From contig CAVVCQ010000007.1 in the NCBI GenBank assembly GCA_963746805.1, forward strand, positions 70,510 to 134,509: a stretch of DNA of 64,000 nt, read 5' to 3'. The stretch comes from an uncultured Actinomycetes bacterium (lineage in GTDB: Bacteria > Actinomycetota > Thermoleophilia > Gaiellales > Gaiellaceae). The notes under the pieces were generated by a model. It made no database searches and was not told the origin of the DNA. It was given only the letters and a program-made list of their open reading frames with translations. Made by a program: the position numbers and the translations under genes. Of the stretch, positions 2,853 through 16,750 are shown piece after piece (the first letter of the stretch is position 1; each line of letters begins with the position of its first letter).

Positions 2853-4556
2853 TTACCGGGACGCGGCCTCGAGCGCGATCCGGTCGCCGCGCAGGTCCGC
2901 GACGTGCGTGACCGGGCGGTGGCGGTATGCCGCCGCATCGCGCTTCCGGCCCTGCTCGGTGAGGAGGTAGGTCGGGGTCTCCACCGAGAGGCGCACGTCC
3001 CGCAGGCGGTAGATCGCCCATGCCTCCTCCCAGGCGTCGTCGGTCGTGAACGAGACCGTGGCCCCGGCCGGGACGTCGCCGGTGAGTTCGAGCGTCCGCC
3101 GGGCGTCCACCGGCGCGATCGTCGCGACGAGAGCCGACGCCAGGAGCAGGACGCCTCCGACGGCTGCCGCGGCGACGCCTGTGCGGGTACGGCGCCCGGC
3201 AAAGGGGGTCAGCGCGAGCAGCACCAGGAACGGGGCGCCGTAGGCGAGCAGCTTGTACGACAGGTACGGGGCGAACGCGGGGAGGAGCAGAACGACCCAG
3301 CCGCCGAGGACGAGCGCCGAGCCGGCCAGGACGAAATCGGCGCGGCCGAGCCGGCGCGCGGCGCGCACCCCGCCGACGAGCAGCATGACGGCGAGGAGCG
3401 AGGCCGCGACGAGCCACGTGACGCGGATCGCCGCCGGCCAGTCCTCCTCGATCGCCCAGACGCGCGGGACGAGGCCGAGCGCCTCGCCCGGCTGCCCGGC
3501 CGGGAAGTGCTCCTTGAACGCCGTGGAGAAGCCGCCCGCGTCGACGAACTCCGGGAGGCCGCTGCCGAGCGCGACGAGCGAGGGGAGCGCGAGGAGCGCC
3601 GCCGCCCCTGCGAACACACCTGTCCGCCGGGCGACGTCCCCGCGGTCGTGCCCGGTCACGAGCGTCGTGGCCACGACGAGCGCGAGCAGCGCGGCGAGGT
3701 ACGGCGCGAACCCGAGTCGGTAGGTCGCGAGCGCGCCGGCGACGAGCAGCGCGGCGAGGACGAGGAGGAGCCTCGACGCCGCCGGCTCGAGCCCCAGCCG
3801 CAGGAGCGCGGCGGCCGCGAACGCGAGCGCGCTCCCGGCGAGCTGCTGCTGCCAGGAGAAGTGGCTCGCGAAGAGGAGCGAGGCGTTCAGGGCGATCACG
3901 CCGCCGGCGAGGAGCGCGAGCCGCGGCGTCCAGCCGAGCAGCGCCCTTGCGGCCGCGTACGTCGCGAGCGGCAGGAACGCGTAGACGAGGGCCGCGAGGA
4001 CGCCGTACGTCTCGGCCGGGTCGGCGTCGGCGACCCATGCCAGCTGCCCGAGCGCGAACGGGAGCGCGACCGCCCACTGCTGGTCGCGGGAGCGCTCGTA
4101 CGTGAGCCGGTCGGGGTGCTCGGTGATCGGTTCCGGGGCGGGGCCGTCGAGGTACGCGCGGCCCTGCGAGACCCAGTGGTAGGCGTCCGTGCTGCCGTAG
4201 AGGCTCGTCGCCTCCCAGCTCCCGCGCACCGCTGCAGGGAGCGCCGCGAGGAGGAGCGCGCCGACCGCCAGCGCGGCCGGAACCGCGGCCGCCCGCAGCG
4301 TCGGAAGGCGGCGCCGCACGGCGACGGTGACCGCGAGCCCGAGCGCCAGGACGATCGGCGCGAGAACGCCCGTCGTGGCGCCGTACGGGAGGAGCGTGCT
4401 CGCCGCGGCGAGGAGCGCGAACCCGGCGAGCGGCGCGAGCGCCGCCTGCGCGTCCCCGGGGAGGCCGGGCGCGAGCGCGGCCGCCACGCCGATCCCGGCG
4501 ACGCCGGCGACCGCGAGCCCGAGCAGCGGGAGCGCGACCGTCGCGAGCTCACGCAC
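2853..4556 (-). CDS. polytopic integral membrane protein (GT-C-like glycosyl/arabinosyl-transferase-type topology; function unknown)
   Basis: 567-aa ORF with GTG start. Has about a dozen hydrophobic Ala/Leu/Gly-rich segments followed by a soluble C-terminal domain. Overlaps the upstream PAP2 gene by 8 nt. Confidence 0.7.
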   Translation of the reverse strand: MRELATVALPLLGLAVAGVAGIGVAAALAPGLPGDAQAALAPLAGFALLAAASTLLPYGATTGVLAPIVLALGLAVTVAVRRRLPTLRAAAVPAALAVGALLLAALPAAVRGSWEATSLYGSTDAYHWVSQGRAYLDGPAPEPITEHPDRLTYERSRDQQWAVALPFALGQLAWVADADPAETYGVLAALVYAFLPLATYAAARALLGWTPRLALLAGGVIALNASLLFASHFSWQQQLAGSALAFAAAALLRLGLEPAASRLLLVLAALLVAGALATYRLGFAPYLAALLALVVATTLVTGHDRGDVARRTGVFAGAAALLALPSLVALGSGLPEFVDAGGFSTAFKEHFPAGQPGEALGLVPRVWAIEEDWPAAIRVTWLVAASLLAVMLLVGGVRAARRLGRADFVLAGSALVLGGWVVLLLPAFAPYLSYKLLAYGAPFLVLLALTPFAGRRTRTGVAAAAVGGVLLLASALVATIAPVDARRTLELTGDVPAGATVSFTTDDAWEEAWAIYRLRDVRLSVETPTYLLTEQGRKRDAAAYRHRPVTHVADLRGDRIALEAASR

Positions 4557-5478
4557 GCGCGCGCTCGCGCCGCCGGAAGAACCACGTGACGGCGGCGAAG
4601 GCGATGCCGGCGTAGAGCCAGCCCGCGAGCACGTCGCTGACGTAGTGCTCGCCGGTGTAGACGAGCGCGAAGCCCATGGCGACCGGGTATGCCATCAGCG
4701 CGACGCGCCACCAGGGCCGCGTCACGAGCGGCCAGAAATAGAGCGCGATCAGGAGTGCGTAGGCGGCGTGCAGCGAGGGCATCGCCGCGACGTCGTTCGC
4801 GTAGCGGGAGCCCGACTCCCAGACCGAGCCGAAGAAGTCGACGGGCGCATCCACCGAGACGTACCGCACCACGCGGTCGACGTGGCCGAGGTGCCCCTCG
4901 TCGCTGGCCATCCACGGCGGCACGGCCGGGAACGCGGCGTAGGTCGCGAAGCCCATCGCCGCCAGGAGCGCGACCATCGCCGCGTACGGCCGGAACAGCT
5001 CCCGCCTGCGCAGCCACAGGCAGGCCGCCACCGTGAGCGTCGCGACGAAGTGCGTGAGGTAGACGACCCAGTTGAGGTAGTCGAACCAGCCGACCGTCCC
5101 GTCCCACAGGTGCTGCTGCAGCCAGACCGTGGGGACGGTGCCGAAGAACACCCACTCGTCGAAGCGCAGCTGCGGCCACACGTTGGCCGCCTGGAACTCG
5201 TCCGCGTACCCGCGCAGGAGGTCGTAGACGAAGAGGACGGCCGCGAGCGGGAGCCAGTCCACGAGCAGTTCGCGCAGCCGGCCGCGCGGCCCGGTCGCGG
5301 TGAAGGCGACGAGCCCGAGCGTGAGCCACAGGAAGAGGGCGTCACGGGATGTCGGGACGCCGCGCACCACGCAGGCGACGGCCAGAGCCACGAAGAAGGC
5401 CGCGAGTGCGAGGACCCGCAGGGCCTGCCGCGCGGCCGGCCTCCGGGCCGTGGCCTCGGACACGGTCGCGGAGTCCAT
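4549..5478 (-). CDS. PAP2-superfamily membrane phosphatase/phosphotransferase
   Basis: 309-aa ORF with multiple TM helices. Carries PAP2 C-terminal motifs PSLHAAYALL and YTGEHYVSDVLAGW. Confidence 0.8.
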   Translation of the reverse strand: MDSATVSEATARRPAARQALRVLALAAFFVALAVACVVRGVPTSRDALFLWLTLGLVAFTATGPRGRLRELLVDWLPLAAVLFVYDLLRGYADEFQAANVWPQLRFDEWVFFGTVPTVWLQQHLWDGTVGWFDYLNWVVYLTHFVATLTVAACLWLRRRELFRPYAAMVALLAAMGFATYAAFPAVPPWMASDEGHLGHVDRVVRYVSVDAPVDFFGSVWESGSRYANDVAAMPSLHAAYALLIALYFWPLVTRPWWRVALMAYPVAMGFALVYTGEHYVSDVLAGWLYAGIAFAAVTWFFRRRERARA

Positions 5479-5518
5479 GGCCGAACACTGTAGAGCGGCC
5501 CGCGGCGGTTCCGGGCGG

Positions 5519-5932
5519 TCAGGCGTTCAACGCGCTCTGCGCCTTCGCGAACTGATCCTCGCGCACGTACACGACGTACCCGAACGCGCCGTGCCCGTCG
5601 CTCACGCCGGTCGAGGCGTAGACGTCGACGCCCGCATCGACCAGGCGCTCGTGCACGCTCGCGAGCGCCCCGGGCTCGTCGTTGCCCTGGACGAGGAGCG
5701 CGTGGTGTGGCCCGTCGAGCGCCAGCCCGGCGGCGCGCGCCTCGGCGGCGAGCTTCCGGGAGTCCTGCGGGAAGAGGGCGAACTGCGCCAGCGTGGGCCC
5801 GCTGGGCACAGCCGTGAACGCGAGCAGGTCGACGCCGCGCTCGGCGAGCGCGGACAGGACGCGGTAGGCGGCGCCGAGCTCGTCGCGGACGGTGGCGTAG
5901 AAGTACTCGACCGGTCGGATCGTGAACGCCAT
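5519..5932 (-). CDS. small tandem ACT-like domain protein (hypothetical)
   Basis: 137-aa ORF with good GC3. Contains two beta-alpha-beta-beta-alpha-beta-like halves (YFYATVRDELGAAYRVLSALAERGVDL and LLVQGNDEPGALASVHERLVDAGVDV). Confidence 0.55.
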   Translation of the reverse strand: MAFTIRPVEYFYATVRDELGAAYRVLSALAERGVDLLAFTAVPSGPTLAQFALFPQDSRKLAAEARAAGLALDGPHHALLVQGNDEPGALASVHERLVDAGVDVYASTGVSDGHGAFGYVVYVREDQFAKAQSALNA

Positions 5933-6059
5933 GCGCTGCCTCCGCGCGGAGCCTACGGGAAGGCGGAGGCCTCCACACGCGCTGTTGCCCCGGGTCCTTC
6001 ACTTTCGCGCGCCCGAGCGCAAGAATGGCACCTGCCCGCTCAGTGGGGGGATCGCCGCC

Positions 6060-6434
6060 TTGCAGGTCCAGCACGAACGCCGCCCGCGCAGCACTGTCGG
6101 CTTCGCAGCCCGCGACATCACAGCCGACGTGAACGTCGCGGTCCGCGACACGGGGATCCGGGCCGGGATCGCGTACGTGTCGTCCTCCGACCCCCGCTGC
6201 TGCGTCCGGGTGAACGAGCTCGCGCCGGAGCTGCTGCAGGACTTCGCGGCACTGCTGCGGCGGCTGCTCCCGGACGAGGGGTCGCCGGTGTCGATGCTGC
6301 TGGGCCCGGCCGGCGAGGCGATCCCCGTGTCGGGTGGCCAGCTCCTCCTCGGCCGGTTGCAGCGGGTGCTCTTCCTCGAGCTGGACGACGCGTCCGACGG
6401 CGAGTGGCGCGTCGAGGTGGTCGGTGCGCCGTGA
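6060..6434 (+). CDS. divergent YjbQ/UPF0047-like protein (hypothetical)
   Basis: C-terminal two-thirds of ORF 5922..6434 resemble the YjbQ layout (DITADVNVAVRDTGIRAGIAYV..., ...GQLLLGRLQRVLFLELDD...RVEVVG), but the usual His residues are missing. Start is uncertain; TTG 6060 lies after a G-rich stretch. Confidence 0.4.
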   Translation: MQVQHERRPRSTVGFAARDITADVNVAVRDTGIRAGIAYVSSSDPRCCVRVNELAPELLQDFAALLRRLLPDEGSPVSMLLGPAGEAIPVSGGQLLLGRLQRVLFLELDDASDGEWRVEVVGAP

Positions 6435-6754
6435 ACGACGCCGCGTTCGTCACCGATGCGTACGTGCGCGAGCGGCTCGCGCAGGCGGTGCACGCGCTCG
6501 CGACCACCGACGGGCCGCTCCCGGAGCGCCTCTTCTCCGCCTCGCTCGCGACCTCGACGCTGCAGCCCCGGGACTTCGCCGACCCGGAGTGCCGGGCCGA
6601 CTTCGGCGCGATCCGGGAGATGCTCACCCGCCGGGAGGCCGACGCGAACGAGGGTTGCATCCGGGCGACGCTCGCGCGGATGAGCGACGCCGAGGCGCGC
6701 GCCGTCGCGGAGCGGATCTTCGAGCTCGACGCCCACTACCGACCGCCGTCATGA
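6431..6754 (+). CDS. hypothetical helical protein
   Basis: GTG 6431 overlaps the previous stop (GTGA). The 107-aa product has high GC3 (VNDAAFVTDAYVRERLAQAVHALATTDGPLPERLF...). It is the only coding-looking part of the long ORF 5300..6754. Confidence 0.55.
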   Translation: MNDAAFVTDAYVRERLAQAVHALATTDGPLPERLFSASLATSTLQPRDFADPECRADFGAIREMLTRREADANEGCIRATLARMSDAEARAVAERIFELDAHYRPPS

Positions 6755-6802
6755 GCTCACACCTCGACCAGGGAAGGGAGGTGGGTCGCCGTTAGCACCA
6801 GC

Positions 6803-7177
6803 GTGGAAGCCGACCTGTTCTTCGAGAACGACCTCGGGGTCGACCTGTCCGGCATCCCGTCGAGCTATTCGCTCGACGTCACGCATCTGCCGAAGATCGA
6901 GATCGCGCTCGACCCCATCGAGCTCGAGCCGATCACGGTCAACCCGCTCGACGTCTCCGTGCGCCTGAAGGAGATCCCGTCGATTCGCACGCACGTCCCG
7001 GCGCTGTTCACGCTCGGGCTCTCCGTGCTCGGCTACGAGCTCGTCTGCGCGCGCCTGTGCGGGGAGGCCCAGGTGATCACCGAGCCGTACGAGCCGAACC
7101 CGTGCGAGCACTGCGGGAAGCCGCACCGGACGCCGGTGCCGGTTCCCGCCGAGCCGTCGCCGGAGGTGCCCAAGTGA
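6803..7177 (+). CDS. hypothetical protein P1 (124 aa, unknown family)
   Basis: GTG start and high GC3. Sequence ...LPKIEIALDPIELEPITVNPLDVSVRLKEIPSIRTHVPALFTLGLSVLGYELVCARLCGEAQ...CEHCGKP. No signal peptide. First gene of the overlapping operon. Confidence 0.7.
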   Translation: MEADLFFENDLGVDLSGIPSSYSLDVTHLPKIEIALDPIELEPITVNPLDVSVRLKEIPSIRTHVPALFTLGLSVLGYELVCARLCGEAQVITEPYEPNPCEHCGKPHRTPVPVPAEPSPEVPK

Positions 7178-7935
7178 CGCCCGCCCCGCGCCGCGCCGCC
7201 AAGTCGCGCCGCGCCGTGGCCCAGGCCGCCGAGCCGGTCGTGTTCAAGGGCCCTCCCGACCGCCTCGCCTCCCTCCTTCCGGTCGCGGCGGAGGCCGGGG
7301 GAGCGGCGAGCGTGAGCCTCGAGGGCACGGAGGTCCGCGCCCTGCGCGTGCGCCGGGTCGCCCGCGACGGCCCGGCCGCCGGACGCGCGACGCTGCGTCT
7401 GTCGGCGTCGACGCCGCCCGGGACGTACACGGGCACGGCCGAGCTCGAGGGCGAGACGGTCCCGATCCTGGCCGAGGTCGAGCCCCGGCCGAGCCTCCGC
7501 TCCGAGCCGCGGCGCCTCGTCGTCGAGGCCGAGCCGGGGGCGACCGTCACCGTGGACGTGGCGCTCGTCAACGCCGGCAACGTCCCGTGTGACGTCTCCG
7601 GGACGACGACCTTCTGCCTCTTCGACGGGGGCGGCGTCGAGCACGCCGTCTGGGCGGCCCTCGCCTCCGATCCGCCGGAGGGGAAGCAGCGGATCGACGT
7701 CCTGCTCGACGACCTCGCGGAGTCCCACGGCGGGCTGGTCACGACGAAGGTCGAGCGCGGCGCGACGATTCCGCCCGGCGAGACGCGGACGGTGCAGCTG
7801 TCCCTCCGCTTCTCCGACCGGCTTCGTCCGGGCAAGCGCTACGCGGGCGCGTGGCGGGTCGAAGGGCTGCGCGTCCCGATCCGGATCACGACGCCGGAGA
7901 CGACCCCGAAACGAAAGGCGAAGGTGGCGAGATGA
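7174..7935 (+). CDS. hypothetical protein P2 (253 aa, beta-sandwich-like)
   Basis: GTG 7174 overlaps the P1 stop (GTGA) and is in frame with ORF 7057..7935. Has strand-like repeats (ATLRLSASTPPGTYTGTAELEG; ATVTVDVALVNAGNVPCDVSG; ETRTVQLSLRFSD). Confidence 0.7.
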   Translation: MTPAPRRAAKSRRAVAQAAEPVVFKGPPDRLASLLPVAAEAGGAASVSLEGTEVRALRVRRVARDGPAAGRATLRLSASTPPGTYTGTAELEGETVPILAEVEPRPSLRSEPRRLVVEAEPGATVTVDVALVNAGNVPCDVSGTTTFCLFDGGGVEHAVWAALASDPPEGKQRIDVLLDDLAESHGGLVTTKVERGATIPPGETRTVQLSLRFSDRLRPGKRYAGAWRVEGLRVPIRITTPETTPKRKAKVAR

Positions 7936-8492
7936 GCTCGAAGGACGGATCCGCGACGCTCGCCGACGCGCTGAAGGCGATCGGCGACGCCGTGGCGCCC
8001 GGCGCGAAGCTCGGGCTCGGCCTGCTCGAGTCGATCAGGCTCCCGACCCGCACGGGCTGCAGCTGCGAGATCCCGCCGCCGTGCTGGGTGCCGCAGCCGC
8101 TCGGCGACGTCGAGACCGAGGCCTGCCCCGGCAACAACGCCGTCGTCCGCATCACGATCACGAACTGCGGGACGACGGGCCGGACGATCAAGGTCACCGC
8201 GACGAACGCGGCGGTGAAGGTCGCGCCCGCGTCGCTGACGCTGGGGCCGCTGGAGGAAGGCCTCGTCACGCTCACGCTCCCCGTGCCGGCGGGGGCGACG
8301 AAGGGCCAGACCCAGAAGAGCCTCGTCCGGATCCACGGATGCCGCGACTACTACTTCCGCTGGACGGTCGTGGCCGCCGACGCCGGCGTCAGCTGCGCCG
8401 CCGGCGAGGTCGAGCTGGAGGACTGCCCCGACCTGATCCACCACTGGTACGACCACTTCTACTGCGAGCGGCCGTGCCCGAACCGAGACTGA
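7932..8492 (+). CDS. hypothetical Cys-rich protein P3 (186 aa)
   Basis: ATG 7932 overlaps the P2 stop (ATGA) and is in frame with ORF 7851..8492. Contains 10 Cys (GCSCEIPPPCW, EACPGNN, ITNCGTT, HGCRDYY, EDCPDLIHHWYDHFYCERPCP) and an Ig-like core (AVVRITITNCGTTGRTIKVTATN). Confidence 0.7.
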   Translation: MSSKDGSATLADALKAIGDAVAPGAKLGLGLLESIRLPTRTGCSCEIPPPCWVPQPLGDVETEACPGNNAVVRITITNCGTTGRTIKVTATNAAVKVAPASLTLGPLEEGLVTLTLPVPAGATKGQTQKSLVRIHGCRDYYFRWTVVAADAGVSCAAGEVELEDCPDLIHHWYDHFYCERPCPNRD

Positions 8493-8995
8493 GCGACAGC
8501 GTCCGCGACGCCGCGGAGGCGAGCCTGCGCTACTACGGCCGCATGGGTGGGCTCGCCTTGGAGCTGGCCGAGACCCTCGTCCCCTCGCTCTCGGGCCTGC
8601 GGCCGGCGGTCGTCCGCTCGTCCGCGCCGCCCGCCGAGCCCGCGTCCGCGGAGTCGCCGCGGGGACAGACGATCGTGATCGAGGCTGCCGCGGGGCGCAA
8701 CGGCCTGGGCGTGTTCATGGTCGAGAACACCACCGGCAGGAAGGTCTCGGGGCCGCTCGGCGTGTCGTCCTTCGCGGACGAGTCCGGGCGCGAGGTGCAG
8801 CCGACGGTCCGGTTCTCGCCGGACGTCGTCTCGCTCGAGCCCGGCGACCAGGTGCTCGTCCAGGTCGTGGCCGGGGTCGACGGCACGTTCGAACCGGGCG
8901 TCCGCTACGGGGCCGAGATCAGCATCCCGGAGCTCGCCGCGGCCGGGATCCCGCTCGTCGTGCAGCGGCGCGCGGCCCGTCCCCGGAAGGCATGA
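8474..8995 (+). CDS. hypothetical protein P4 (about 173 aa)
   Basis: Coding part of ORF 7589..8995. Candidate starts are GTG 8474 (19-nt overlap with P3) or CTG 8489 (CTGA overlap). Helical N-terminus (SDSVRDAAEASLRYYGRMGGLALELAETLV) followed by a beta-rich C-terminus (QTIVIEAAAGRNGLGVFMVENTTG...). Confidence 0.65.
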   Translation: MPEPRLSDSVRDAAEASLRYYGRMGGLALELAETLVPSLSGLRPAVVRSSAPPAEPASAESPRGQTIVIEAAAGRNGLGVFMVENTTGRKVSGPLGVSSFADESGREVQPTVRFSPDVVSLEPGDQVLVQVVAGVDGTFEPGVRYGAEISIPELAAAGIPLVVQRRAARPRKA

Positions 8996-9942
8996 CCTCC
9001 CCGGCGCCCGCGCAGGACCCGGAGCGCTCCGCCTGGGAGCTGCCGGACCTCCTCGGCGTCACGGCCGACCTCGACCGCCTGCGTGACGTCATCGCCACCT
9101 GGATCGAGGACTGCGACGCCGAGGTCCGGGAGATGGTGCGGCGCCAGCTGTCGGCGCGGGCGAAGTACTTCCGCCCGGTGACCGTCTTCGCGTGCCACTA
9201 CGCGAGGACGACGAGGCCCGTCCCGGGGCGCGTGCTCCGGTCGGCCGCCGCGGTCGAGCTGCTCCACAACGTCTCGCTGATCGTCGACGACATCCTCGAC
9301 CGCTCGCGCTACCGCCGCGGCGAGCTGTCGCTGCACTGCCGCTACGGGTTCCTGCCGGCGCTCATGACCGCGGGTTACGTCGGCTTCGCCGGCTCGAAGC
9401 TCGTCGCGTCCGACGCCTACAGCGTGCGGCTCCTGGCCGAGCTCATGCAGCGGCTCGGCGCCGCCGAGTGCCTCCAGTGGCGCCTGCGCCGCCAGCCGCT
9501 GGGCGTCGAGGACTGGCGCGCGATCGCTGGCGCCGACACGGGGAGCATGTTCGAGATCTGCGCCCGCCTCGGGACCCGCGACGACGCCCTTCGCACGTAC
9601 GGGCTCCTTCTCGGCACGCTCTACCACGGCTGCGACGACGTCGCCGACGTCCGCGGCACCACTGCCCTCGGCGGCGGCAGCGAAAAGGACATCGTCGACG
9701 GGATCCTCACGCTCCCCGCGGCGGTCGCGATGCGGCGGCCGGCCGCGGCGCTCCTCTTCCGCAACGCGGGCCCGGCGACGTTCGCGCGGATCGCCGAGGA
9801 GCTTCGCAGCGCCCTGCCCGAGGCCGAGGCGTACCTCGACCGGCTCGCGGCCGAGGCCGAGGACGAGGCCGCGCGCAATGCCGCCCACCCGGATCGCCTC
9901 GTCGACCTCCTCCGCCACACCCGTGCGCTCTCGGCCGTCTGA
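8992..9942 (+). CDS. polyprenyl (trans-isoprenyl) diphosphate synthase family, divergent
   Basis: 316 aa. ATG overlaps the P4 stop (ATGA). First Asp-rich motif is LLHNVSLIVDDILDRSRYRRG; the second is LYHGCDDVADVRG followed by DIVDGILTLP. Confidence 0.8.
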   Translation: MTSPAPAQDPERSAWELPDLLGVTADLDRLRDVIATWIEDCDAEVREMVRRQLSARAKYFRPVTVFACHYARTTRPVPGRVLRSAAAVELLHNVSLIVDDILDRSRYRRGELSLHCRYGFLPALMTAGYVGFAGSKLVASDAYSVRLLAELMQRLGAAECLQWRLRRQPLGVEDWRAIAGADTGSMFEICARLGTRDDALRTYGLLLGTLYHGCDDVADVRGTTALGGGSEKDIVDGILTLPAAVAMRRPAAALLFRNAGPATFARIAEELRSALPEAEAYLDRLAAEAEDEAARNAAHPDRLVDLLRHTRALSAV

Positions 9943-11389
9943 GTCGGACGTGATCGTCGTGGGCGGCGGGCCCGGCGGCAGCACGCTCGCGTGGGACCTC
10001 GCCAGGCAGGGCGTCGAGGTGACGGTGCTCGAGCGCACGCGGTTCCCGCGCGAGAAGGTGTGCGGCGACTACGTCGAGCCGCGCGGCCTCCGGATCCTCG
10101 AGCGCATGGGCGCGCTCGAGCGGCTCGAGACGGGCGGGCCGTTGCGGATTACGCATTCGGCCACCCACGTCGACGGTGAGTGCCGCTACCGCGGGGAGAT
10201 CCCGTTCTACGGCCCGGACGGCGACCTCCCGCCGCACGGCTACATCATCGCGCGGGACGAGCTCGACGACGCGATGCTGCGGACGGCCGCCGAGGCCGGG
10301 GCGACCGTGCACGAGGAGACGCAGGCGACGGTCGTCGATGTGGACGCGGACGGCGTGGCCGTCGAGGCGAAGCGGAACGGCAAGGTCGTCCGCTACCGGA
10401 GCCGGCTCGTCGTCGGCGCCGACGGGGTCAACTCGGTGGTCGCACGGTGCGCCGGGCTGGCGGCCGACGATCCGCGCTACGTCGCGGTCGCCCAGCGCGC
10501 GTACGCGAACGTCGCCGACGACGTCGGCGAGGCGGCGTTCTTCTTCGACCACGACCTCTTCCCCGGGTACGGCTGGGTGTTCCCGCTCGCCGGTGGCCGT
10601 GTGAACCTCGGCGTCGGGATCCTCTCCGAGACGAGGCGGAAGCTCGGGCTCCAGGTCCCGGACCTCTTCGCCTCCTTCGTCGCGGGCCTCGGCGAGGCGA
10701 GCACGCGCTGGCGGGCGCTCGAGCTCTGCGCGCCCCCGATCGGTGGGATCGTCCGGACCTACGGCGCCGCGGGCCCGAACCACTTCGACGGCGGCGTCCT
10801 CGTCGGCGACGCCGGCAGCTTCGTCGACCCGATGACCGGCGAGGGGATCACGCCCGCGATGGAGTCGGCGCTGCTCGCCTCGCCCGTCCTGTGCCGCGCG
10901 CTCGACGTCGGCCGCTTCGACGCGACGCAGCTCCAGCCCTACGAGACCGCGTTCCGCACGCACTTCGACCCGGCCATGGTCTTCCTCGACCTCTGCGCGG
11001 CGACGCTGCGCAACCGGCACCTGGCCGGCCCCTGGCTGAAGGCGCTCGCCCGGGGCTGCGAGCTCGCGTCGTCCTCTCCGGAGTTCGCCCGGACCGGCGG
11101 CGCCTACTTCGGCGGCCTCGACGTGCGCCCGTTCGGGATCCTCGGGCAGATGTGGCTCCGCGTCGTCGAGGATCTCGCGCTGGCGTGGCCCCGGTCGCTC
11201 ACCGGCGCCGCGCGCGGGACGACGCTGACCGACCTCGTGGGGTGGCAGGCCGCGCTGCTGCAGTCGCTGCTTGCCGAGCCGCTCTGGCACACGCGCTGGG
11301 CGGCGGACGTCCAGCGCAAGTGGCTGCGGGTGCTGGCCCCGGGGGCACGCGGGGAGGATCCGCGCTACTCGGGCGTCGCTAGCTCTTGA
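9878..11389 (+). CDS. geranylgeranyl reductase family FAD-dependent oxidoreductase
   Basis: 503-aa ORF with DVIVVGGGPGGSTLAWDLARQG, REKVCGDYV and GDAGSFVDPMTGEGI. Start is either ATG 9878 (65-nt overlap) or GTG 9950. Confidence 0.85.
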   Translation: MPPTRIASSTSSATPVRSRPSESDVIVVGGGPGGSTLAWDLARQGVEVTVLERTRFPREKVCGDYVEPRGLRILERMGALERLETGGPLRITHSATHVDGECRYRGEIPFYGPDGDLPPHGYIIARDELDDAMLRTAAEAGATVHEETQATVVDVDADGVAVEAKRNGKVVRYRSRLVVGADGVNSVVARCAGLAADDPRYVAVAQRAYANVADDVGEAAFFFDHDLFPGYGWVFPLAGGRVNLGVGILSETRRKLGLQVPDLFASFVAGLGEASTRWRALELCAPPIGGIVRTYGAAGPNHFDGGVLVGDAGSFVDPMTGEGITPAMESALLASPVLCRALDVGRFDATQLQPYETAFRTHFDPAMVFLDLCAATLRNRHLAGPWLKALARGCELASSSPEFARTGGAYFGGLDVRPFGILGQMWLRVVEDLALAWPRSLTGAARGTTLTDLVGWQAALLQSLLAEPLWHTRWAADVQRKWLRVLAPGARGEDPRYSGVASS

Positions 11390-11774
11390 CCCGGGCCGCA
11401 CGGGTGCGGCGCGGCGTGCGCTTGCCGATCGTCTCGAGTTGGCTGTTGAAGTGCTGCACCGACAGCGTCGGCAGCTCGGTCAGGTCGCGGAGGTACTGGC
11501 GGGTGAGGTCGCTGATGCGGCTCACGAGCTCGCTCGGGTCGCCGTCCGACGCCTCGAGCGTCGCAAGCTCGTCGCCGACGGCCTTCGAGTAGACGTTCGC
11601 CCGCTCGGCCCAGCCGGCCCAGAACGTCGTCACCGCGCTCACCGCGGCGAGCTGCGTCCGGGCCGCCTCGATGAGGACGTCGCGCACCGCGTCGCTCTTC
11701 GGCGCCTCGGGCTGCTCGGTCGCGCGCGTTGCCCGTTTCGCCGCAGGCTTCTTCCGTTGAGGCTGTGGCGGCAC
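11379..11774 (-). CDS. hypothetical helical (phasin-like) protein
   Basis: GTG 11774 sits 4 nt after GGAGG and is in frame with ORF 11379..12521. 131 aa (...KSDAVRDVLIEAARTQLAAVSAVTTFWAGWAERANVYSKAVGDELATLE...). Convergent with the reductase gene and overlaps it by 11 nt. Confidence 0.6.
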   Translation of the reverse strand: MPPQPQRKKPAAKRATRATEQPEAPKSDAVRDVLIEAARTQLAAVSAVTTFWAGWAERANVYSKAVGDELATLEASDGDPSELVSRISDLTRQYLRDLTELPTLSVQHFNSQLETIGKRTPRRTRAARVKS

Positions 11775-11809
11775 AGACCTCCGATCTCGAACGGAGCCTC
11801 GGAGGGATC

Positions 11810-12706
11810 CTATCGCGCGCGCTCGAGAAGCCAGTCGTGTACCTCGGGGATCCGGTGCTCCATCAGCGTTAGGTGACCGTCCTCCGCGGTGAGGCGGGCG
11901 TCCGCGCCGGGGACGTGCTCCGCCAGCCACCGGCCGTGCGAGGGCGGCACGAACCGGTCCTCCTCGCCCTGCCAGACGAGCACCGGGACGGCGATCGCGT
12001 CGAGGGCGAAGCCCCATGGCTCGACGAATGCGAGGTCGTCCTCGACCCACCCCTCGACGCCGGTCGCGAGTCCGGCCCGCACCGACTCGACGAGGTGGTC
12101 GGCGAGCTCGGCGGTCGCGACGTTCGCGTCGACCGTCGAGAGCAGCGTCGCCCACTGCTCTCGCAGGTCCTGACCGGACGCGGTGGCGAAGGCGGCGCGG
12201 TGCGTCTCGAGCAGCGGCTCGAGCGACTCCCGGCCGGCGAGCACCGCGGCGAACTCGTCCAGGTTGTCCTCGCCCATGCCCCCGAGCCAGTCGAGTCCCT
12301 CGGCGTCGTACGGCGCGACCCCGGCCAGGCTCGCCGCGGCCGTGACGCGGTCGCCGAGCAGGGCGGCGCAGGCGAGCGCGTGCGGCCCGCCGCCGGAGAT
12401 GCCCCAGACGGCGAACCGGTCGATGGCGAGCGCGTCGGCGACGGCCGTCGCGTCGGGCACGAAGTCGCCGACCGCGCGCCCGGGCTGCGGGGTCGAGGCG
12501 CCGTAGCCGGGCCGCGTCCACGAGACGAGCCTGATCCCACGCTCCTCCGCCTCGGCCGCGTGCGGGTCGTAGAGGATGCCGCCGGAGGGCGTGCCGTAGA
12601 TCGCGACGACGGCCGGCCCGTCCGGGTCTCCCGCCTCGAAGACGTCGAGCGAGTGGCCGTCCCGGGTGGTGACGGTGTGCGTGCGCACGGCCGGCGATTC
12701 TCTCAC
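11810..12706 (-). CDS. alpha/beta-fold hydrolase
   Basis: Coding part of ORF 11810..13237. Nucleophile elbow is FAVWGISGGGPHAL; the C-terminal region reads ...WQGEEDRFVP...EDGHLTLM. GTG 12706 overlaps the glpK stop (GTGA); the alternative start is GTG 12688. Confidence 0.8.
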   Translation of the reverse strand: MRESPAVRTHTVTTRDGHSLDVFEAGDPDGPAVVAIYGTPSGGILYDPHAAEAEERGIRLVSWTRPGYGASTPQPGRAVGDFVPDATAVADALAIDRFAVWGISGGGPHALACAALLGDRVTAAASLAGVAPYDAEGLDWLGGMGEDNLDEFAAVLAGRESLEPLLETHRAAFATASGQDLREQWATLLSTVDANVATAELADHLVESVRAGLATGVEGWVEDDLAFVEPWGFALDAIAVPVLVWQGEEDRFVPPSHGRWLAEHVPGADARLTAEDGHLTLMEHRIPEVHDWLLERAR

Positions 12707-14112
12707 CGGAGGAGTGCCCGCCGGACGGCGAGCCGCCAGCCCTCGCGCAGCGTCTCGGCCTCGTCCCGGCTCAGCGCCGGCTCGTAGACGGCGCCGGCGC
12801 CGAGGAGGCCGCGCACGTCCGCGGGCGACCAGGAACCGAGCGCGAGACCGGCGAGCGCCGCCGCACCGAGCGCCGTCGTCTCGCGCTCGGCCGCGACCTC
12901 GACGGGCAGCCCCAGAAGATCGGCCTGGAACTGCATCAGGAAGCCGTTCGCGCTCGCGCCGCCGTCGGCCCGCAGCGCCGTCAGCTCGAGCGGCAGCGCG
13001 TCGACGACGTCCGCGATCTGGAACGCGATCGCCTCGAGCGTGGCACGCACGACGTGGGCGCGAGTCGTGCCGCGCGTGATCCCGCTCAGCAGCCCGCGTG
13101 CGTCGGGCTCCCAGTGCGGCGAGCCGAGCCCCGTCAGCGCCGGGACGAGGACGACGCCGTCCGACGAGTCGATGCTCCGCGCGAGCGCCTCGGTCTCCGC
13201 CGCGGAACCGACGAGGCCGAGCCCGTCGCGGAGCCACTGCACGGCGGCCCCGCTCGTGAGCACCGCGCCCTCGAGCGCGTAGCCCGTCGGCGCCGCCGCC
13301 GTCGCGAGCAGACCGGATGGAGGCACCGGGGGCTCGGCGCCGGCGTGGGCGAGGACGAAGCTCCCGGTGCCGTAGGTCGCCTTCGCCTCACCGGCGGCGA
13401 AGCAGCCGTGCCCGGCGAGTGCGGCCTGCTGGTCGCCCGCGAGCGCGGCGAGCGGCACGGACGCGCCGAGGAGCTCCGCCTCACCGACGACCTCGGCCGA
13501 GCCCACGATGCGAGGCAGCACGTCGCGCGGGACGCCGAAGAGCGCGAGCAAGTCGTCGTCCCACGCATCGTCCGCGAGCCCGTAGAGGAGCGTCCGTGAC
13601 GCGTTCGTCCGGTCGGTCGCGTGCTCTCCGGCGAGCCGCCATGCGAGCCACGCGTCGACCGTGCCGAAGGCCAGCTCCCGGGGCGGCAGGTCGGTGCGCG
13701 CGAGCAGCCACTCGAGCTTCGTGGCCGAGAAGTACGGGTCCGGGACGAGACCGGTGCGCTCCCGCAGGAGCTCGGCCGGAAGCTCCCGGCAGCGCGCTGC
13801 GGTGCGCCGGTCCTGCCACACGATCGCGGGCGCGACGGGCCGTCCGCTCGCCCGCTCCCACAGGATCGTCGTCTCGCGCTGGTTTGCGATCCCGACCGCC
13901 GCGAGGGCGTCGGCGCCGACGCCCGCGTCCGCGAGCGCCGCCTCGGCCGTCGCGAGCACGCCTGCATGGATCTCCTCCGGGTCGTGCTCGACCCAGCCCG
14001 GGCGCGGGAAGCGCTGCGGCAGCTCCCGGTAGCCGCGGCCCCGTACCCGGAGCCGCTCGTCGACGACGAGACAGGTCGTGCCGGTCGTGCCCTGGTCGAT
14101 CGCGAGGATCAC
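12703..14112 (-). CDS. glpK: glycerol kinase (FGGY family)
   Basis: VILAIDQGTTGTTCLVV, GWVEHDPEEI, GIANQRETTILWE, KATYGTGSF, GLGSPHWEP. GTG 14112 overlaps the glpD stop (GTGA). Confidence 0.88.
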   Translation of the reverse strand: MILAIDQGTTGTTCLVVDERLRVRGRGYRELPQRFPRPGWVEHDPEEIHAGVLATAEAALADAGVGADALAAVGIANQRETTILWERASGRPVAPAIVWQDRRTAARCRELPAELLRERTGLVPDPYFSATKLEWLLARTDLPPRELAFGTVDAWLAWRLAGEHATDRTNASRTLLYGLADDAWDDDLLALFGVPRDVLPRIVGSAEVVGEAELLGASVPLAALAGDQQAALAGHGCFAAGEAKATYGTGSFVLAHAGAEPPVPPSGLLATAAAPTGYALEGAVLTSGAAVQWLRDGLGLVGSAAETEALARSIDSSDGVVLVPALTGLGSPHWEPDARGLLSGITRGTTRAHVVRATLEAIAFQIADVVDALPLELTALRADGGASANGFLMQFQADLLGLPVEVAAERETTALGAAALAGLALGSWSPADVRGLLGAGAVYEPALSRDEAETLREGWRLAVRRALLR

Positions 14113-15587
14113 GCGAGGAGCTCCTCGACGCGGGCGCGCACCGCCGGCGTGTCGAGCCCGCGGAGCGCGAGCGTCGTGCGCCGGCGGAGCACGTCCTCGA
14201 CGGTGAGCGCCCACTCGTGCTCGTGGGCGTAGCGCACCTGGGCGGCGAGCTCGGGCGCGCCGTCCACGACCGGCTCGAGCGGCCCGTGGCCGAGGACGTC
14301 GGCCGCGAGCGAGCCGTAGGTGCCAGCCAGGTGCGCCGCGGTCTGCTCGTCCAGGCCGTGTCGCCGGCGGAGCGCATCGGCCGCGACCTCGGGGTCGGCG
14401 GCGCCCGGCAGCTGGCGCGGCTCGCGGTCGATCCGGTGGAGCCCGAGGTCGGCCCGCAGCGCGTGCAGGACGGCGAGCGCGATGCGGCGGTACGTCGTGA
14501 GCTTCCCGCCGGTGACGGAGACGACGCCGAGCGGGCCGCGCGTGAGCATCGTCTCGCGGCGCACTCGCGCGGTCTCGCCTCCGGCGCCCGCCGGGAGGAC
14601 GCGGAGCCCGGCGAAGCGGGCGCGCACCGGGCCGAGGCCGTCGAGCGCCGACCCGGCCTCGGCGAGGATCTGCCGCTCGTCCTCGTCGGTCGTGCCGACG
14701 TCGGCATCCCCGTCCCACGGCGTGTCGGTCGTGCCGAGCAGCAGGAGCCCCTGCCACGGGACGGCGAACGAGACGCGCGTGCGGTCGAGCGGGATCGTCA
14801 CGGCCGCGCTCCAGCCCGGCGGCAGGTCGAGCACGAGGTGCGCGCCCTTGCTGAGCGTCACGGAGCGGCCCGCGGTGGGATCCTCGAGGCGGCGAATCGC
14901 GTCGATGCCCGCGCCCGTGGCGTTGACGATCGCGGCCGCCCGGACCAGCGCCGTCGCGCCGGTGAGGACGTCGCGCACCTGGCCGGCGCCGCGCTCGAGG
15001 CCGACGAGCTCGACGCGGCTCGCGACGACGGCGCCGCCGTCCGCAGCGGCCCGGAGATTGAGCAGGCAGAGCCGGGCGTCGTCCGTGCGCGCGTCCGGAT
15101 AGACGCCGGCCGCGCGCAGCCCGTCGGTCCGCAGCGACGGTACGAGCTCGGCCGCGGCGGCCGGCGCGACGAGGCGGCTCCGCTCCTTCGGGATCCCCGT
15201 CAGCCGCGCGTACGACCAGAGCGCGCCGCGGATCGGCATCCGCCCGTACGGCCCGCCGGCGTAGATCGGGAGGACGAACGGGATCCGGCGCACGAGGTGC
15301 GGCGCGACCCGGCGCGAGAGCGCCTCGACCTCCCCGAGCGCCTCCCGGACGAGCGAGAAGTGGCCGAGGCGAAGGTAGCGCAGCCCGCCGTGGACGAGCT
15401 TCGACGACGCGCTCGTCGTCCCCGATGCAAAGTCGCCGCGCTCGACGAGCGCGACGGCGAGCCCGTGGCGGGACGCGAGCTCGGCGACGCCGGCGCCGAG
15501 GATCCCGCCGCCGACCACGAGCAGGTCGAAGCGCTCGCGGCCGAGCCGTTCGAGCGTCGCCTCGCGCGTCGTGGCCGCGGCGCTCAG
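14109..15587 (-). CDS. glpD: FAD-dependent glycerol-3-phosphate dehydrogenase
   Basis: FDLLVVGGGILGAGVAELASRHG...GDFASGTTSASSKLVHGGLRYL. There is no ATG/GTG/TTG between the Rossmann motif and the upstream gene. CTG 15587 lies 7 nt after GGGAGG and overlaps the upstream stop (CTGA). The 5' end is uncertain. Confidence 0.82.
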   Translation of the reverse strand: MSAAATTREATLERLGRERFDLLVVGGGILGAGVAELASRHGLAVALVERGDFASGTTSASSKLVHGGLRYLRLGHFSLVREALGEVEALSRRVAPHLVRRIPFVLPIYAGGPYGRMPIRGALWSYARLTGIPKERSRLVAPAAAAELVPSLRTDGLRAAGVYPDARTDDARLCLLNLRAAADGGAVVASRVELVGLERGAGQVRDVLTGATALVRAAAIVNATGAGIDAIRRLEDPTAGRSVTLSKGAHLVLDLPPGWSAAVTIPLDRTRVSFAVPWQGLLLLGTTDTPWDGDADVGTTDEDERQILAEAGSALDGLGPVRARFAGLRVLPAGAGGETARVRRETMLTRGPLGVVSVTGGKLTTYRRIALAVLHALRADLGLHRIDREPRQLPGAADPEVAADALRRRHGLDEQTAAHLAGTYGSLAADVLGHGPLEPVVDGAPELAAQVRYAHEHEWALTVEDVLRRRTTLALRGLDTPAVRARVEELLA

Positions 15588-16750
15588 GGCCGCGCCTCCC
15601 GTACCTGCGCCCGCTCCTCGCGGTAATGGACGACGTCGTAGACGATGAGCACGCAGCAGACGGCGGTCACGAGCGCGAGCGAGGTCAGCGCCGCCACCTC
15701 CTGCGCCACCGGCACGAGCGCGAGCGCGGCCACCGTCGCGGTCGGCCTGCCGACGCCGAACCAGGCGGGGCGGTTCCCGCTCGCCCGGCGGATGAGCTGG
15801 ACGGTGCGGAGGCGCATCAGGACGTGCGTGAAGAAGTACAGCGCCACGCCGCCGCACAGGGCGACGGCCGGGACGGTCTCGAGCGGGTCGCCGACGTGCT
15901 CGACCGTCTTCTTCAACCCGAGCGCGAAGAGGACGATGCCCGCGATCATCGGCAGGTGGAGATAGCTGTAGTGGTCGCGCGCGAACCGCACGCGCGCGGC
16001 GCCGCTCGTCGACGTGAGCTCCCGCTGGCCCATGACCGCGTAGACGTCGAAGTACGCCCACCAGAGGGCGGCGAGCGAGACGACGGCCAGCGCGGCGGCG
16101 GTGACCACGCCGGTCGTGAGCGTCACGCCCATCGCGCCGATGCCGATCGACACGATCGACTCGCCGAGGGCGATGATCACGATCAGGCCGTGCCGCTCGG
16201 CGAAATGCGCGGGCGAGACGCGCCAGCCCACGCCGCGCCCGATGAGCGCCCCGCCGTAGTCGACGGCCAGGGCGGCGATCCAGAGCGCGACCCGCGCGTC
16301 GCCGTCGAGGAAGCCGGCCACGATCAGGATCGCGGGCGCCAACAGGCCGGCCGGGGCGATGCGCACGACGGCGCCGAGCAGCTCGGGGTCGCGCTTCCCC
16401 GCGAGTGCGTAGAGGAGCAGGAAGAGGAGCCGCACGACGAGATAGGCGACGGCGAACAGGACGGCGTCCTCGCCGAAGGCTCCAGGCACGGCGAGCGCGA
16501 TGACGAGCATCGCCGCCATCGCCGCGACCATCGCGACACGGACGGCGGCGGCCTCCGGCTCGAGCGTGTTCGTCAGCCACGCGTAGCCCGTCCAGGCCCA
16601 CCAGATCGCCGCCAGGACGAGCAGCCCGCGCCCGACGCCGGCCCACGTCGGATCGTCCGACATGAGGTTCGTGACCTGCGTGATGCCGAAGACGAAGACG
16701 AGGTCGAAGAACAGCTCGAGCGGGGTGACTCGCTGCTCACGATCCGGCAC
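15584..16750 (-). CDS. low-temperature-requirement A (LtrA)-family membrane protein
   Basis: 388 aa. N-terminal signature is RVTPLELFFDLVFVFGITQV. About 10 TM segments. Confidence 0.8.
   Translation of the reverse strand: MPDREQRVTPLELFFDLVFVFGITQVTNLMSDDPTWAGVGRGLLVLAAIWWAWTGYAWLTNTLEPEAAAVRVAMVAAMAAMLVIALAVPGAFGEDAVLFAVAYLVVRLLFLLLYALAGKRDPELLGAVVRIAPAGLLAPAILIVAGFLDGDARVALWIAALAVDYGGALIGRGVGWRVSPAHFAERHGLIVIIALGESIVSIGIGAMGVTLTTGVVTAAALAVVSLAALWWAYFDVYAVMGQRELTSTSGAARVRFARDHYSYLHLPMIAGIVLFALGLKKTVEHVGDPLETVPAVALCGGVALYFFTHVLMRLRTVQLIRRASGNRPAWFGVGRPTATVAALALVPVAQEVAALTSLALVTAVCCVLIVYDVVHYREERAQVREARP

Follow-up and report, generated by a model that had tools for sequence, protein, structure and literature searches.

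Organisation of the locus

The DNA examined here is a 64,000-nucleotide stretch from an uncultured Actinomycetes bacterium (contig CAVVCQ010000007.1, positions 70,510 to 134,509 of the forward strand), which is referred to as the window and numbered from its first letter. It contains a cluster of closely packed genes, g1 to g7, in which four small proteins of no recognised family (g1 to g4) are encoded directly upstream of a polyprenyl synthase-family protein (g5) and a geranylgeranyl reductase (GGR)-family protein (g6). In the following list, GC3 denotes the third-position GC content, pI the isoelectric point and aa amino acids.

g1, 6803..7177, plus strand: 124 aa, acidic, pI 4.6; GC3 0.95
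g2, 7174..7935, plus strand: 253 aa, basic, pI 9.8; GC3 0.94; GTGA overlap with g1
g3, 7932..8492, plus strand: 186 aa; GC3 0.97; ATGA overlap with g2
g4, 8474..8995, plus strand: about 170 aa; GC3 0.95; start GTG 8474, alternative CTG 8489
g5, 8992..9942, plus strand: 316 aa; divergent member of the trans-isoprenyl diphosphate synthase family
g6, 9923..11389, plus strand: 488 aa from GTG 9923; GGR-family FAD protein; alternative starts 9878 and 9950
g7, 11379..11774, minus strand: 131 aa from GTG 11774; GC3 0.97; alternative GTG 11687, giving 102 aa

The original prediction, made from the letters of the window, had described g1 to g6 as an overlap-coupled operon, and these six same-strand coding sequences are real. 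The third-position GC is 0.94-0.97 in the g1 to g6 frames, in a region of about 74% GC, and the best frame changes precisely at the junctions. The predicted junctions were confirmed at 7174 (GTGA), 7932 (ATGA) and 8992 (ATGA), as well as between g3 and g4, where GTG 8474 overlaps g3 up to its stop codon (8490-8492) by 19 nt or, alternatively, CTGA is used at 8489. For the start of g6, the predicted 65-nt overlap from ATG 9878 holds, whereas the alternative GTG 9950 leaves a gap of 7 nt and not of 8. A further start, GTG 9923, yields 488 aa, the length called for the orthologue in locus L001, and is therefore probably the true one. The predicted extent of six genes had to be revised, since the conserved unit has a seventh gene, g7, which is convergent with g6, shares 11 nt with the end of that gene and is preceded by a GGAGG at a distance of 4 nt from GTG 11774. 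Because the flanking genes are kept solely in the nearest relative, the conserved unit, as judged from gene neighbourhoods, is g1 to g7 (6803-11774). No promoter- or terminator-like sites were found across 5400-12200, a scan that is uninformative at about 74% GC.

A fixed four-gene module with exchangeable enzymes

A scan with g1 of one genome per species returned 112 relatives, and the best 80 loci were analysed. All four genes in the order g1-g2-g3-g4 were found in 62 of these 80 loci and at least three of them in 73, most of the missing members falling at contig ends. The g2 gene directly follows g1 in 77 loci, and g4 comes after g3 in most. A polyprenyl synthase is encoded within 8 kb in 63 loci and the same synthase and reductase as in the window in 46, which bears out the expectation that the homologues co-occur with prenyl genes. 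From locus to locus, the similarities to the genes of the window rise and fall together (Spearman 0.6-0.8). Taxonomically, the 80 loci belong to Thermoleophilia, other Actinomycetota, Acidobacteriota, Gemmatimonadota, Chloroflexi, Dormibacterota, Fidelibacterota, Binataceae and Eisenbacteria, and to Alpha-, Beta- and 'Delta'-proteobacteria, including Acetobacteraceae, Burkholderiales, Woeseiaceae and cultured Ruegeria and Roseobacter isolates. Collectively, these comparisons show that g1 to g4 constitute a fixed four-gene, apparently non-enzymatic module beside an exchangeable enzyme set, and that the cluster of the window is one representative of a gene cluster that occurs widely but sparsely and has spread horizontally. 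The sets of partner enzymes are as follows.

Type A (that of the window), 46 loci: orthologues of g5 (56-94% identity, across phyla) and g6 (49-94% identity); g7 in 45 of the 46
Type B, 17 loci including Ruegeria: canonical synthase resembling geranylgeranyl diphosphate synthase (GGPPS) or IdsA, class-I S-adenosylmethionine (SAM) methyltransferase, extra g4-like paralogue, weak SCP2-like protein and proteins of 192 and 336 aa of no known family; no reductase
Type C, 4 loci: PhaC directly after g4 (PhaC_N, 4.5e-55)
Type D, 6 loci and metagenomic L083/L084: DUF362 protein (about 700 aa), short-chain dehydrogenase/reductase (SDR)/epimerase and proteins of 413 and 177 aa of no known family; in L083/L084 additionally a PFL2-class glycyl-radical enzyme and its activase
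L039: ketosynthase (KS) and acyltransferase-dehydratase (AT-DH) genes of a polyketide synthase (PKS)
P0243: KS fragment upstream of g1
L086: DAGK/YegS lipid kinase between g3 and g4
L087: canonical synthase and GGR, in a lineage of 32% GC
L085: fusion of a g2-like protein to HHH_3, with thioesterase and ACPS genes nearby

Within type A, the gene order of the window occurs in 29 loci, a divergent order in 11 loci of Gemmatimonadota, and three further arrangements were seen; the g5/g6/g7 block stays contiguous despite at least four rearrangements. In 14 Gemmatimonadota type-A loci (in the range L059-L081), an extra conserved 132-aa protein without a family is encoded between g6 and g1, on the minus strand about 350-650 bp upstream of g1.

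Two other variants are described for their gene content. Cultured marine Rhodobacteraceae (Ruegeria L057, L062 and L075; Roseobacter L068 and L076) carry a ten-gene plus-strand operon in the order g1, g2, g3, g4-like gene, SAM methyltransferase, GGPPS-like synthase, g4 paralogue, the genes of the 192-aa and 336-aa proteins, and the SCP2-like gene; these cultured carriers make the system experimentally tractable. On a metagenomic contig of lower GC content (L083/L084, 1-10654), the operon opens with g3-like and g4-like genes, continues with the glycyl-radical enzyme (PFL2/glycerol-dehydratase class), its activase, the DUF362 protein, the SDR/epimerase and the 177-aa protein, and closes with a 217-aa g1-like protein that bears a C-terminal extension.

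Two other readings of the cluster were considered and rejected. For carriage as cargo of a mobile element, the plasmid and viral-contig collections gave no module relatives (zero matches in each). For an anti-phage defence system, PADLOC gave 0 families for g0 (the gene preceding g1) to g4 and g7.

Proteins of the module

As predicted, searches of Pfam, NCBIfam, PADLOC and the PDB sequences gave no above-threshold match for g1 to g4, and none of the four proteins matched a known, unrelated family with confidence. No catalytic family was found in g1 to g4 or g7. The prediction that the first four proteins lack transmembrane helices and signal peptides also holds: none was predicted in the module proteins, and the sole borderline hydrophobic stretch in g1 to g4 is a hairpin at residues 65-83 of g1 (KD19 = 1.67). 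Searches by sequence and profile found no PDB relatives for g1, g2, g4 and g7, and only weak matches to 2qsv and MSP domains for g3.

The most conserved member of the module is g1, with 43-95% identity across phyla. Its 507 homologues (50-100% identity) are, every one, named 'hypothetical', and the family is rare: of 1.84 billion representatives searched, it accounts for about 200 clusters at 50% identity. The homologue alignment has the invariant core ..IPSIR.H.PA.F.LG.S.LG.EL....LCGEAQVITEPY.PNPCE.CG, which includes four invariant cysteines (C82, C86, C101 and C104) in a Cx3C...CxxC site, and a Pro-rich tail ends in EVPK. An AlphaFold2 (AF2) model built from 60 sequences predicted only a hairpin (residues 63-91), with a predicted local distance difference test score (pLDDT) of 45. 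The N-terminus, equivalent to 6890-6960 of the window, consists of short units of the P-I-T-x-x or P-L-D-V-x-V-R type, whose copy number varies between close homologues (P0058, P0106 and P0114); this points to an extended repeat structure whose length can be tuned.

Two departures from the common form of g1 were observed. In the PhaC-linked loci L032, L040, L022 and L045, g1 lacks the C-terminal CxxC (NPCETRSS, NPCECGY...); loci that encode redox enzymes retain it. The pattern may hint at what the Cys site does, or may just reflect lineage. A 1.9-kb metagenomic contig (L082, 447-1145) encodes a fusion of the g1 core with a Phasin_2 domain (60 bits; protein P0320); the hairpin and the Cys site are kept, the N-terminal repeats are absent, and an upstream open reading frame fragment is also phasin-like.

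The original prediction had seen immunoglobulin (Ig)-like strand patterns in three of the four proteins. For g3 this was confirmed by the AF2 model and by Foldseek; for g2 and g4 it is suggested only. The g3 model (pLDDT 82 overall and >90 over residues 50-180) has an N-terminal helix (residues 10-34), a variable linker and a PapD/MSP-like Ig sandwich (residues 50-180). Foldseek against the PDB gave 60 matches at E<=1e-3, all Ig-like, the top ones being ASH, PapD and MSP domains (E 3e-5 to 5e-4; template modelling score by target 0.44-0.57). An alignment of 60 g3 homologues shows the invariant motifs CxCEIPPPCW and EDCPDLxHHWYDHFYCxRPC, with 8-9 conserved Cys and 3 His. The same plan of helix, linker and domain is found in g4, where an N-terminal helix (..AEASLRYYGRMG..) is followed by a Pro/Ala/Ser linker and a beta-sandwich-like domain; its basic tail is short in the window and long, with AKKx repeats, in homologues. 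By its sequence, g2 probably comprises two beta-sandwich domains; it has basic N- and C-terminal tails and the motifs LP..TPPG.Y.G and N.GNV. Its 167 homologues are all 'hypothetical', and its Pfam matches are sub-threshold (NPCBM_assoc, Invasin_D3, Fn3-like and DUF4232). The hidden Markov models of g2, g3 and g4 cross-match one another's homologues, the hhalign probability of g2 against g3 being 24%. Extra g4-like paralogues occur in the type-B loci and also in L085 and L087.

The C-termini of g2, g4 and g7 are basic. In some homologues of g4 (L003, L047 and L064) and g2 (L063), the tails are expanded into long AKKP, AKKT or GSKKG repeats, e.g., KKPAAAKKPAAARKPAAKKPAARKRP, and are histone-H1-like; in L085, HHH_3, to which the g2-like protein is fused, is a DNA-binding domain. 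In the small, helical g7, the motif FW..W is invariant and the C-terminal tail (..RTRAARVKS) is basic. A phasin identity of g7 was considered and rejected: no Pfam family is common to its 17 homologues, and the hhalign probability against the Phasin_2 domain of P0320 is 0.1%.

The synthase and reductase of the window

The last two plus-strand genes had been recognised as a prenyl synthase and a geranylgeranyl reductase, and both assignments were upheld. The g5 protein matches PF00348 (Polyprenyl_synt) with 101.5 bits (gathering threshold 27), and its Asp-rich motifs DDILD (aa 99-103) and DDVAD (aa 215-219) are invariant across 48 orthologues. No product-specific equivalog of NCBIfam (FPP, GGPP and hexa- to nonaprenyl synthases) is reached, all 16 models staying far under cut-off; NPPPS_Mycobact scores 49.5 bits (cut-off 600), and the best model is that of the family-2 encapsulin cargo polyprenyl transferase (73.5 bits; cut-off 450). 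Also invariant in the 48 orthologues are DTG, YH and D..D.ILTLP. The canonical motifs of trans-prenyl synthases are KT, FQ before the second Asp motif and GK....K after it. In place of these, g5 presumably carries DT for KT, YH for FQ and ..I for GK..K. With the equivalogs unreached and DTG, YH and D..D.ILTLP invariant, g5 is therefore, by its sequence, a distinct and highly conserved synthase subfamily, which may catalyse something other than plain chain elongation.

The g6 protein matches the GGR family TIGR02032 with 187.1 bits, above the curated cut-off of 158.8. Its FAD motif VVGGGPGGS (with GGGPGG) and GDAGSFVDPMTGEGI are present and conserved in 48 orthologues, and the GGR hallmarks GxGxxG, GYGWVFP and GDAGxFxDPxxGEGI are found. 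A C-terminal extension of about 100 aa is conserved across orthologues. The second-best NCBIfam match, MenJ, falls far short of its equivalog cut-off (137.5 bits vs 700), as do BchP-ChlP (95.4 vs 343) and the DGGGPL reductase (97.5 vs 580).

Flanking genes

Upstream of g1, a YjbQ/UPF0047 gene (6060-6434, plus strand, 124 aa, PF01894) was found only in the closest relatives, L002 and L004. It overlaps by GTGA with g0 (6431-6754, plus strand, 107 aa), which belongs to no family and ends 48 nt before g1. Both genes may be co-transcribed with the g1 operon, the transcript starting there in this lineage. As an eighth conserved member g0 was rejected: it recurs in L002 and L004 alone, and the gene that precedes g1 in L001 bears no relation to it.

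Farther upstream on the minus strand (2853-5478), a 567-aa polytopic membrane protein without a Pfam match is encoded in overlap with a PAP2-superfamily phosphatase (309 aa). The PAP2 enzyme could dephosphorylate a prenyl diphosphate, but the pair occurs only in the nearest relative and was not counted in the system. Downstream, an alpha/beta-hydrolase, a glycerol kinase (FGGY) and a glycerol-3-phosphate dehydrogenase (DAO and DAO_C) are encoded in series on the minus strand (11810-15701). The g7 gene lies 36 nt downstream of the hydrolase gene and so may here be co-transcribed with these minus-strand genes. The PAP2 phosphatase, an ACT protein, the alpha/beta-hydrolase, GlpK and GlpD were all rejected as parts of the system, being kept only in the nearest relative. 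The flanks of the cluster contain no men or ubi genes.

A putative coat or scaffold and its alternatives

The reading that we favour, tentatively, is that g1 to g4 are a non-enzymatic coat or scaffold of a cytoplasmic lipid or isoprenoid body that is equipped with exchangeable enzyme sets. The module is read as structural because most of its partners make water-insoluble products, namely isoprenoids, polyhydroxyalkanoate (PHA), polyketide or lipid chains and phospholipid precursors. The fusion of g1 to a phasin, the PhaF/PhaM-like tails and the behaviour of g1 as an assembly-dependent building block also argue for a coat or scaffold. Under this proposal, g1 to g4 and g7 would assemble in the cytoplasm, recruit the adjoining enzymes and keep their water-insoluble product in a discrete body. 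The repeating structural unit would be g1, onto which the Ig-like subunits would dock by way of the helices at their N-termini and the flexible linkers. For the Lys/Arg/Ala/Pro tails, the ligand would be a polyanion, either the nucleoid, as PhaF and PhaM do on PHA granules, or lipid head groups. In the window, the role of g5 would be to provide or handle a prenyl diphosphate, whose double bonds would be saturated by g6, so that the product stored or organised would be a partly or fully saturated isoprenoid. The original prediction had proposed that the four proteins may form an assembly that binds, scaffolds or is modified by a partly saturated polyprenyl chain. The assembly itself we still infer; the linkage to prenyl enzymes stands, but specificity for such a chain does not, given the PhaC, PKS, lipid kinase and type-B and type-D partners.

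Several points weigh against a lipid coat. The 80 loci are those most like the window, so that 46 of 80 overstates the share of the enzyme pair in the family. Type D (DUF362, SDR/epimerase and the 413-aa and 177-aa proteins, with the PFL2-class enzyme in L083) has no evident link to lipids and thus fits a general enzyme-organising structure better, and at least two loci (L048 and L061) carry the module without an obvious partner enzyme. The HHWYDHFYC and CxCEIPPPCW motifs of g3 resemble a metal or active site as much as an interface. Neither g7 nor the N-terminal helices have a detectable relation to phasins, and their hydrophobic moments are moderate (0.35-0.53). The assembly, the particle and the lipid body are putative.

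Other ways of reading the module were weighed on the same evidence. It is unlikely that g1 to g4 form a closed protein shell, that is, a nanocompartment enclosing the enzymes, in which helix and linker serve as encapsulation peptides and the purpose is confinement, not storage. Such a shell would account for the conserved structural genes beside variable enzymes, one of which is a PFL2-class glycyl-radical enzyme such as bacterial microcompartments (BMCs) contain, for the N-terminal helix and variable linker on g3, g4 and the g4 paralogues, for the high conservation of a g1 that is poorly folded alone in its AF2 model, and for the patchy distribution among phyla. However, no BMC or encapsulin family was matched, Foldseek of g3 gave no capsid-like fold, and g5, g6 and PhaC have no common terminal peptide; the helices are on Ig-like module proteins rather than on the enzymes, and PHA and polyprenyl products are bulky and ill-suited to a small closed shell. 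We consider it quite unlikely that the module is a soluble lipid-handling complex, whose Ig-like sandwiches hold hydrophobic chains in their cores, as in RhoGDI, PDE-delta and ML-domain proteins, and which would shuttle, extract or solubilise the products of the enzymes and not build a body. Most partners are indeed lipid enzymes, type B adds an SCP2-like lipid-carrier protein, and g2 to g4 are beta-sandwich proteins (g2 and g4 by weak sequence evidence). Yet the best Foldseek matches are the protein-interaction domains PapD, ASH and MSP and not RhoGDI, ML or PDE-delta; the polymer made by PhaC remains bound to its enzyme and requires no carrier; and g1, the histone-like tails, the HHH_3 fusion and the phasin fusion would be left unexplained.

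Two further readings concern conserved residues of g1 and g3. In one, g1 (Cx3CG...CxxCG, rubredoxin-knuckle-like) and g3 would be accessory subunits that bind Fe or Fe-S and deliver electrons to, or mature, the GGR flavoprotein, the glycyl-radical activase or DUF362. The invariance of these residues agrees with this, archaeal GGRs require a dedicated ferredoxin, and the CxxC of g1 is lost in loci where PhaC, which needs no electrons, is the partner (L032, L040, L022 and L045). But the module is equally conserved beside PhaC, a lipid kinase and a synthase with methyltransferase and no reductase, no ferredoxin or rubredoxin family was matched, and four tailed, linker-bearing proteins exceed what an electron carrier needs, which makes a metal or redox role very unlikely. 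In the other, a ComQ-like g5 would prenylate a conserved Cys or Trp of g1 or g3, and g6 would reduce the prenyl group afterwards; ComQ is an enzyme of the prenyl-synthase family that prenylates a peptide. This proposal finds some ground in a g5 that keeps the Asp motifs and presumably replaces three canonical motifs with residues invariant in 48 orthologues, and in the invariant Cys and Trp of g1 and g3. It is nevertheless highly improbable, as type B and L087 use a canonical GGPPS-like synthase, the module also accompanies PhaC, PKS or kinase genes with no prenyl enzyme, and g1 is a conserved protein of folded length and not a leader-core precursor. The least credible account is that of ordinary synthesis and saturation of a quinone or membrane-lipid side chain (GrcC1/MenJ-like or archaeal-type) with g1 to g4 as chance neighbours. 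The genome is actinobacterial and MenJ comes second among the NCBIfam matches of g6, but the equivalog cut-offs are widely missed (MenJ 137.5 vs 700; NPPPS 49.5 vs 600), men and ubi genes were not found in the flanks, and the adjacency to g1 to g4 persists across phyla and rearrangements.

The coat or scaffold reading has a wider form, which we regard as possible but on balance doubtful, namely that the cluster encodes a new class of bacterial intracellular body, a protein-coated or protein-scaffolded lipid, isoprenoid or polyester inclusion that has spread horizontally across >10 phyla. The building blocks of such a body might be Ig-fold subunits together with a small Cys-rich hairpin protein, and it might take a polyprenyl synthase and reductase, PhaC, a PKS or a lipid kinase as plug-in enzymes, a composition that we put forward with equal reserve. 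No firmer is the suggestion that in the genome of the window, which is Thermoleophilia-like, it could store or organise saturated isoprenoid. The organelles and inclusions of bacteria are few (BMCs, encapsulins, gas vesicles, PHA granules, magnetosomes and ferrosomes), and each opened a field. If the wider form is true, soil bacteria would have a dedicated bacterial source of saturated isoprenoid lipids. If the module organises water-insoluble products, the handling of isoprenoids in the carriers would be explained, saturated isoprenoid biomarkers would have a bacterial source, and a portable scaffold for terpenoid and polyester engineering would be at hand. With g1 to g4 and g7, five unannotated families are described in the soil phyla Acidobacteriota, Gemmatimonadota, Thermoleophilia and Dormibacterota and in marine Ruegeria, and the cultured carriers together with a cluster of about 5 kb make the hypothesis directly testable. 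The original prediction had singled out the locus as the window's best candidate for an undescribed system. This agrees with the lack of a Pfam, NCBIfam or PDB family, and a literature search that included the invariant motifs as text strings, with subscription-only papers outside its coverage, found no published description; the system thus appears undescribed.

Comparison with known systems

In its working, the system is closest to the surface proteins of PHA granules and to BMC and encapsulin loci, and by the tests of sequence and fold it is a member of none of them. More distant likenesses concern single components. GrcC1/MenJ, archaeal GGPPS with DGGGPL reductase, and CrtE/BchP have the same two enzyme families in adjacency and the GGR hallmarks. 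The resemblance is at the family level only, since the equivalogs are unreached and g5 is a distinct subfamily; moreover, the window cluster has no genes for quinones, glycerol ethers or chlorophyll and has g1 to g4 and g7 as constant companions. Like GvpA, g1 is a small protein of very high conservation that has a hydrophobic beta-hairpin (predicted in g1), and there is a local likeness of SLVGIELL (GvpA) to SVLGYELV (g1). Homology was rejected, however, as the profile-profile comparison was negative (hhalign probability 0.2%, with approximate GvpA sequences), no Pfam match was obtained and no gvp genes are present. The model of g3 shares its fold over residues 50-180 with the Ig domains of PapD-like, MSP and ASH proteins, which is a generic fold only; unlike these, g3 is cytoplasmic and has unique invariant Cys/His/Trp motifs and an N-terminal helix.

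BMC and encapsulin loci resemble the cluster in combining a fixed structural module with exchangeable enzymes, in patchy transfer and in helix-linker extensions. One variant has a glycyl-radical enzyme, and the best NCBIfam match of g5 is an encapsulin-cargo polyprenyl transferase, but at 73.5 bits against a cut-off of 450. They differ in that g1 to g4 include no BMC-H, BMC-P or HK97-fold protein, that the helices belong to the module proteins and not to the enzymes, and that any particle formed by the module is putative.

The PHA granule, with PhaP, PhaF, PhaM and PhaC, differs from the module in its all-helical phasins, where the module has Ig-like sandwiches and a Cys-rich hairpin protein; g1 to g4 and g7 have no sequence relation to any phasin family, and the commonest partner of the module is the isoprenoid enzyme pair and not PhaC. 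In both, small proteins that are not enzymes have their genes next to that of a polymer-forming enzyme. The module stands directly upstream of PhaC in 4 of the 80 loci (not in the window), and one g1 is fused to Phasin_2. Finally, the histone-like Lys/Ala/Pro tails of the g4 homologues compare with those of PhaF and PhaM, which tether PHA granules to the nucleoid.

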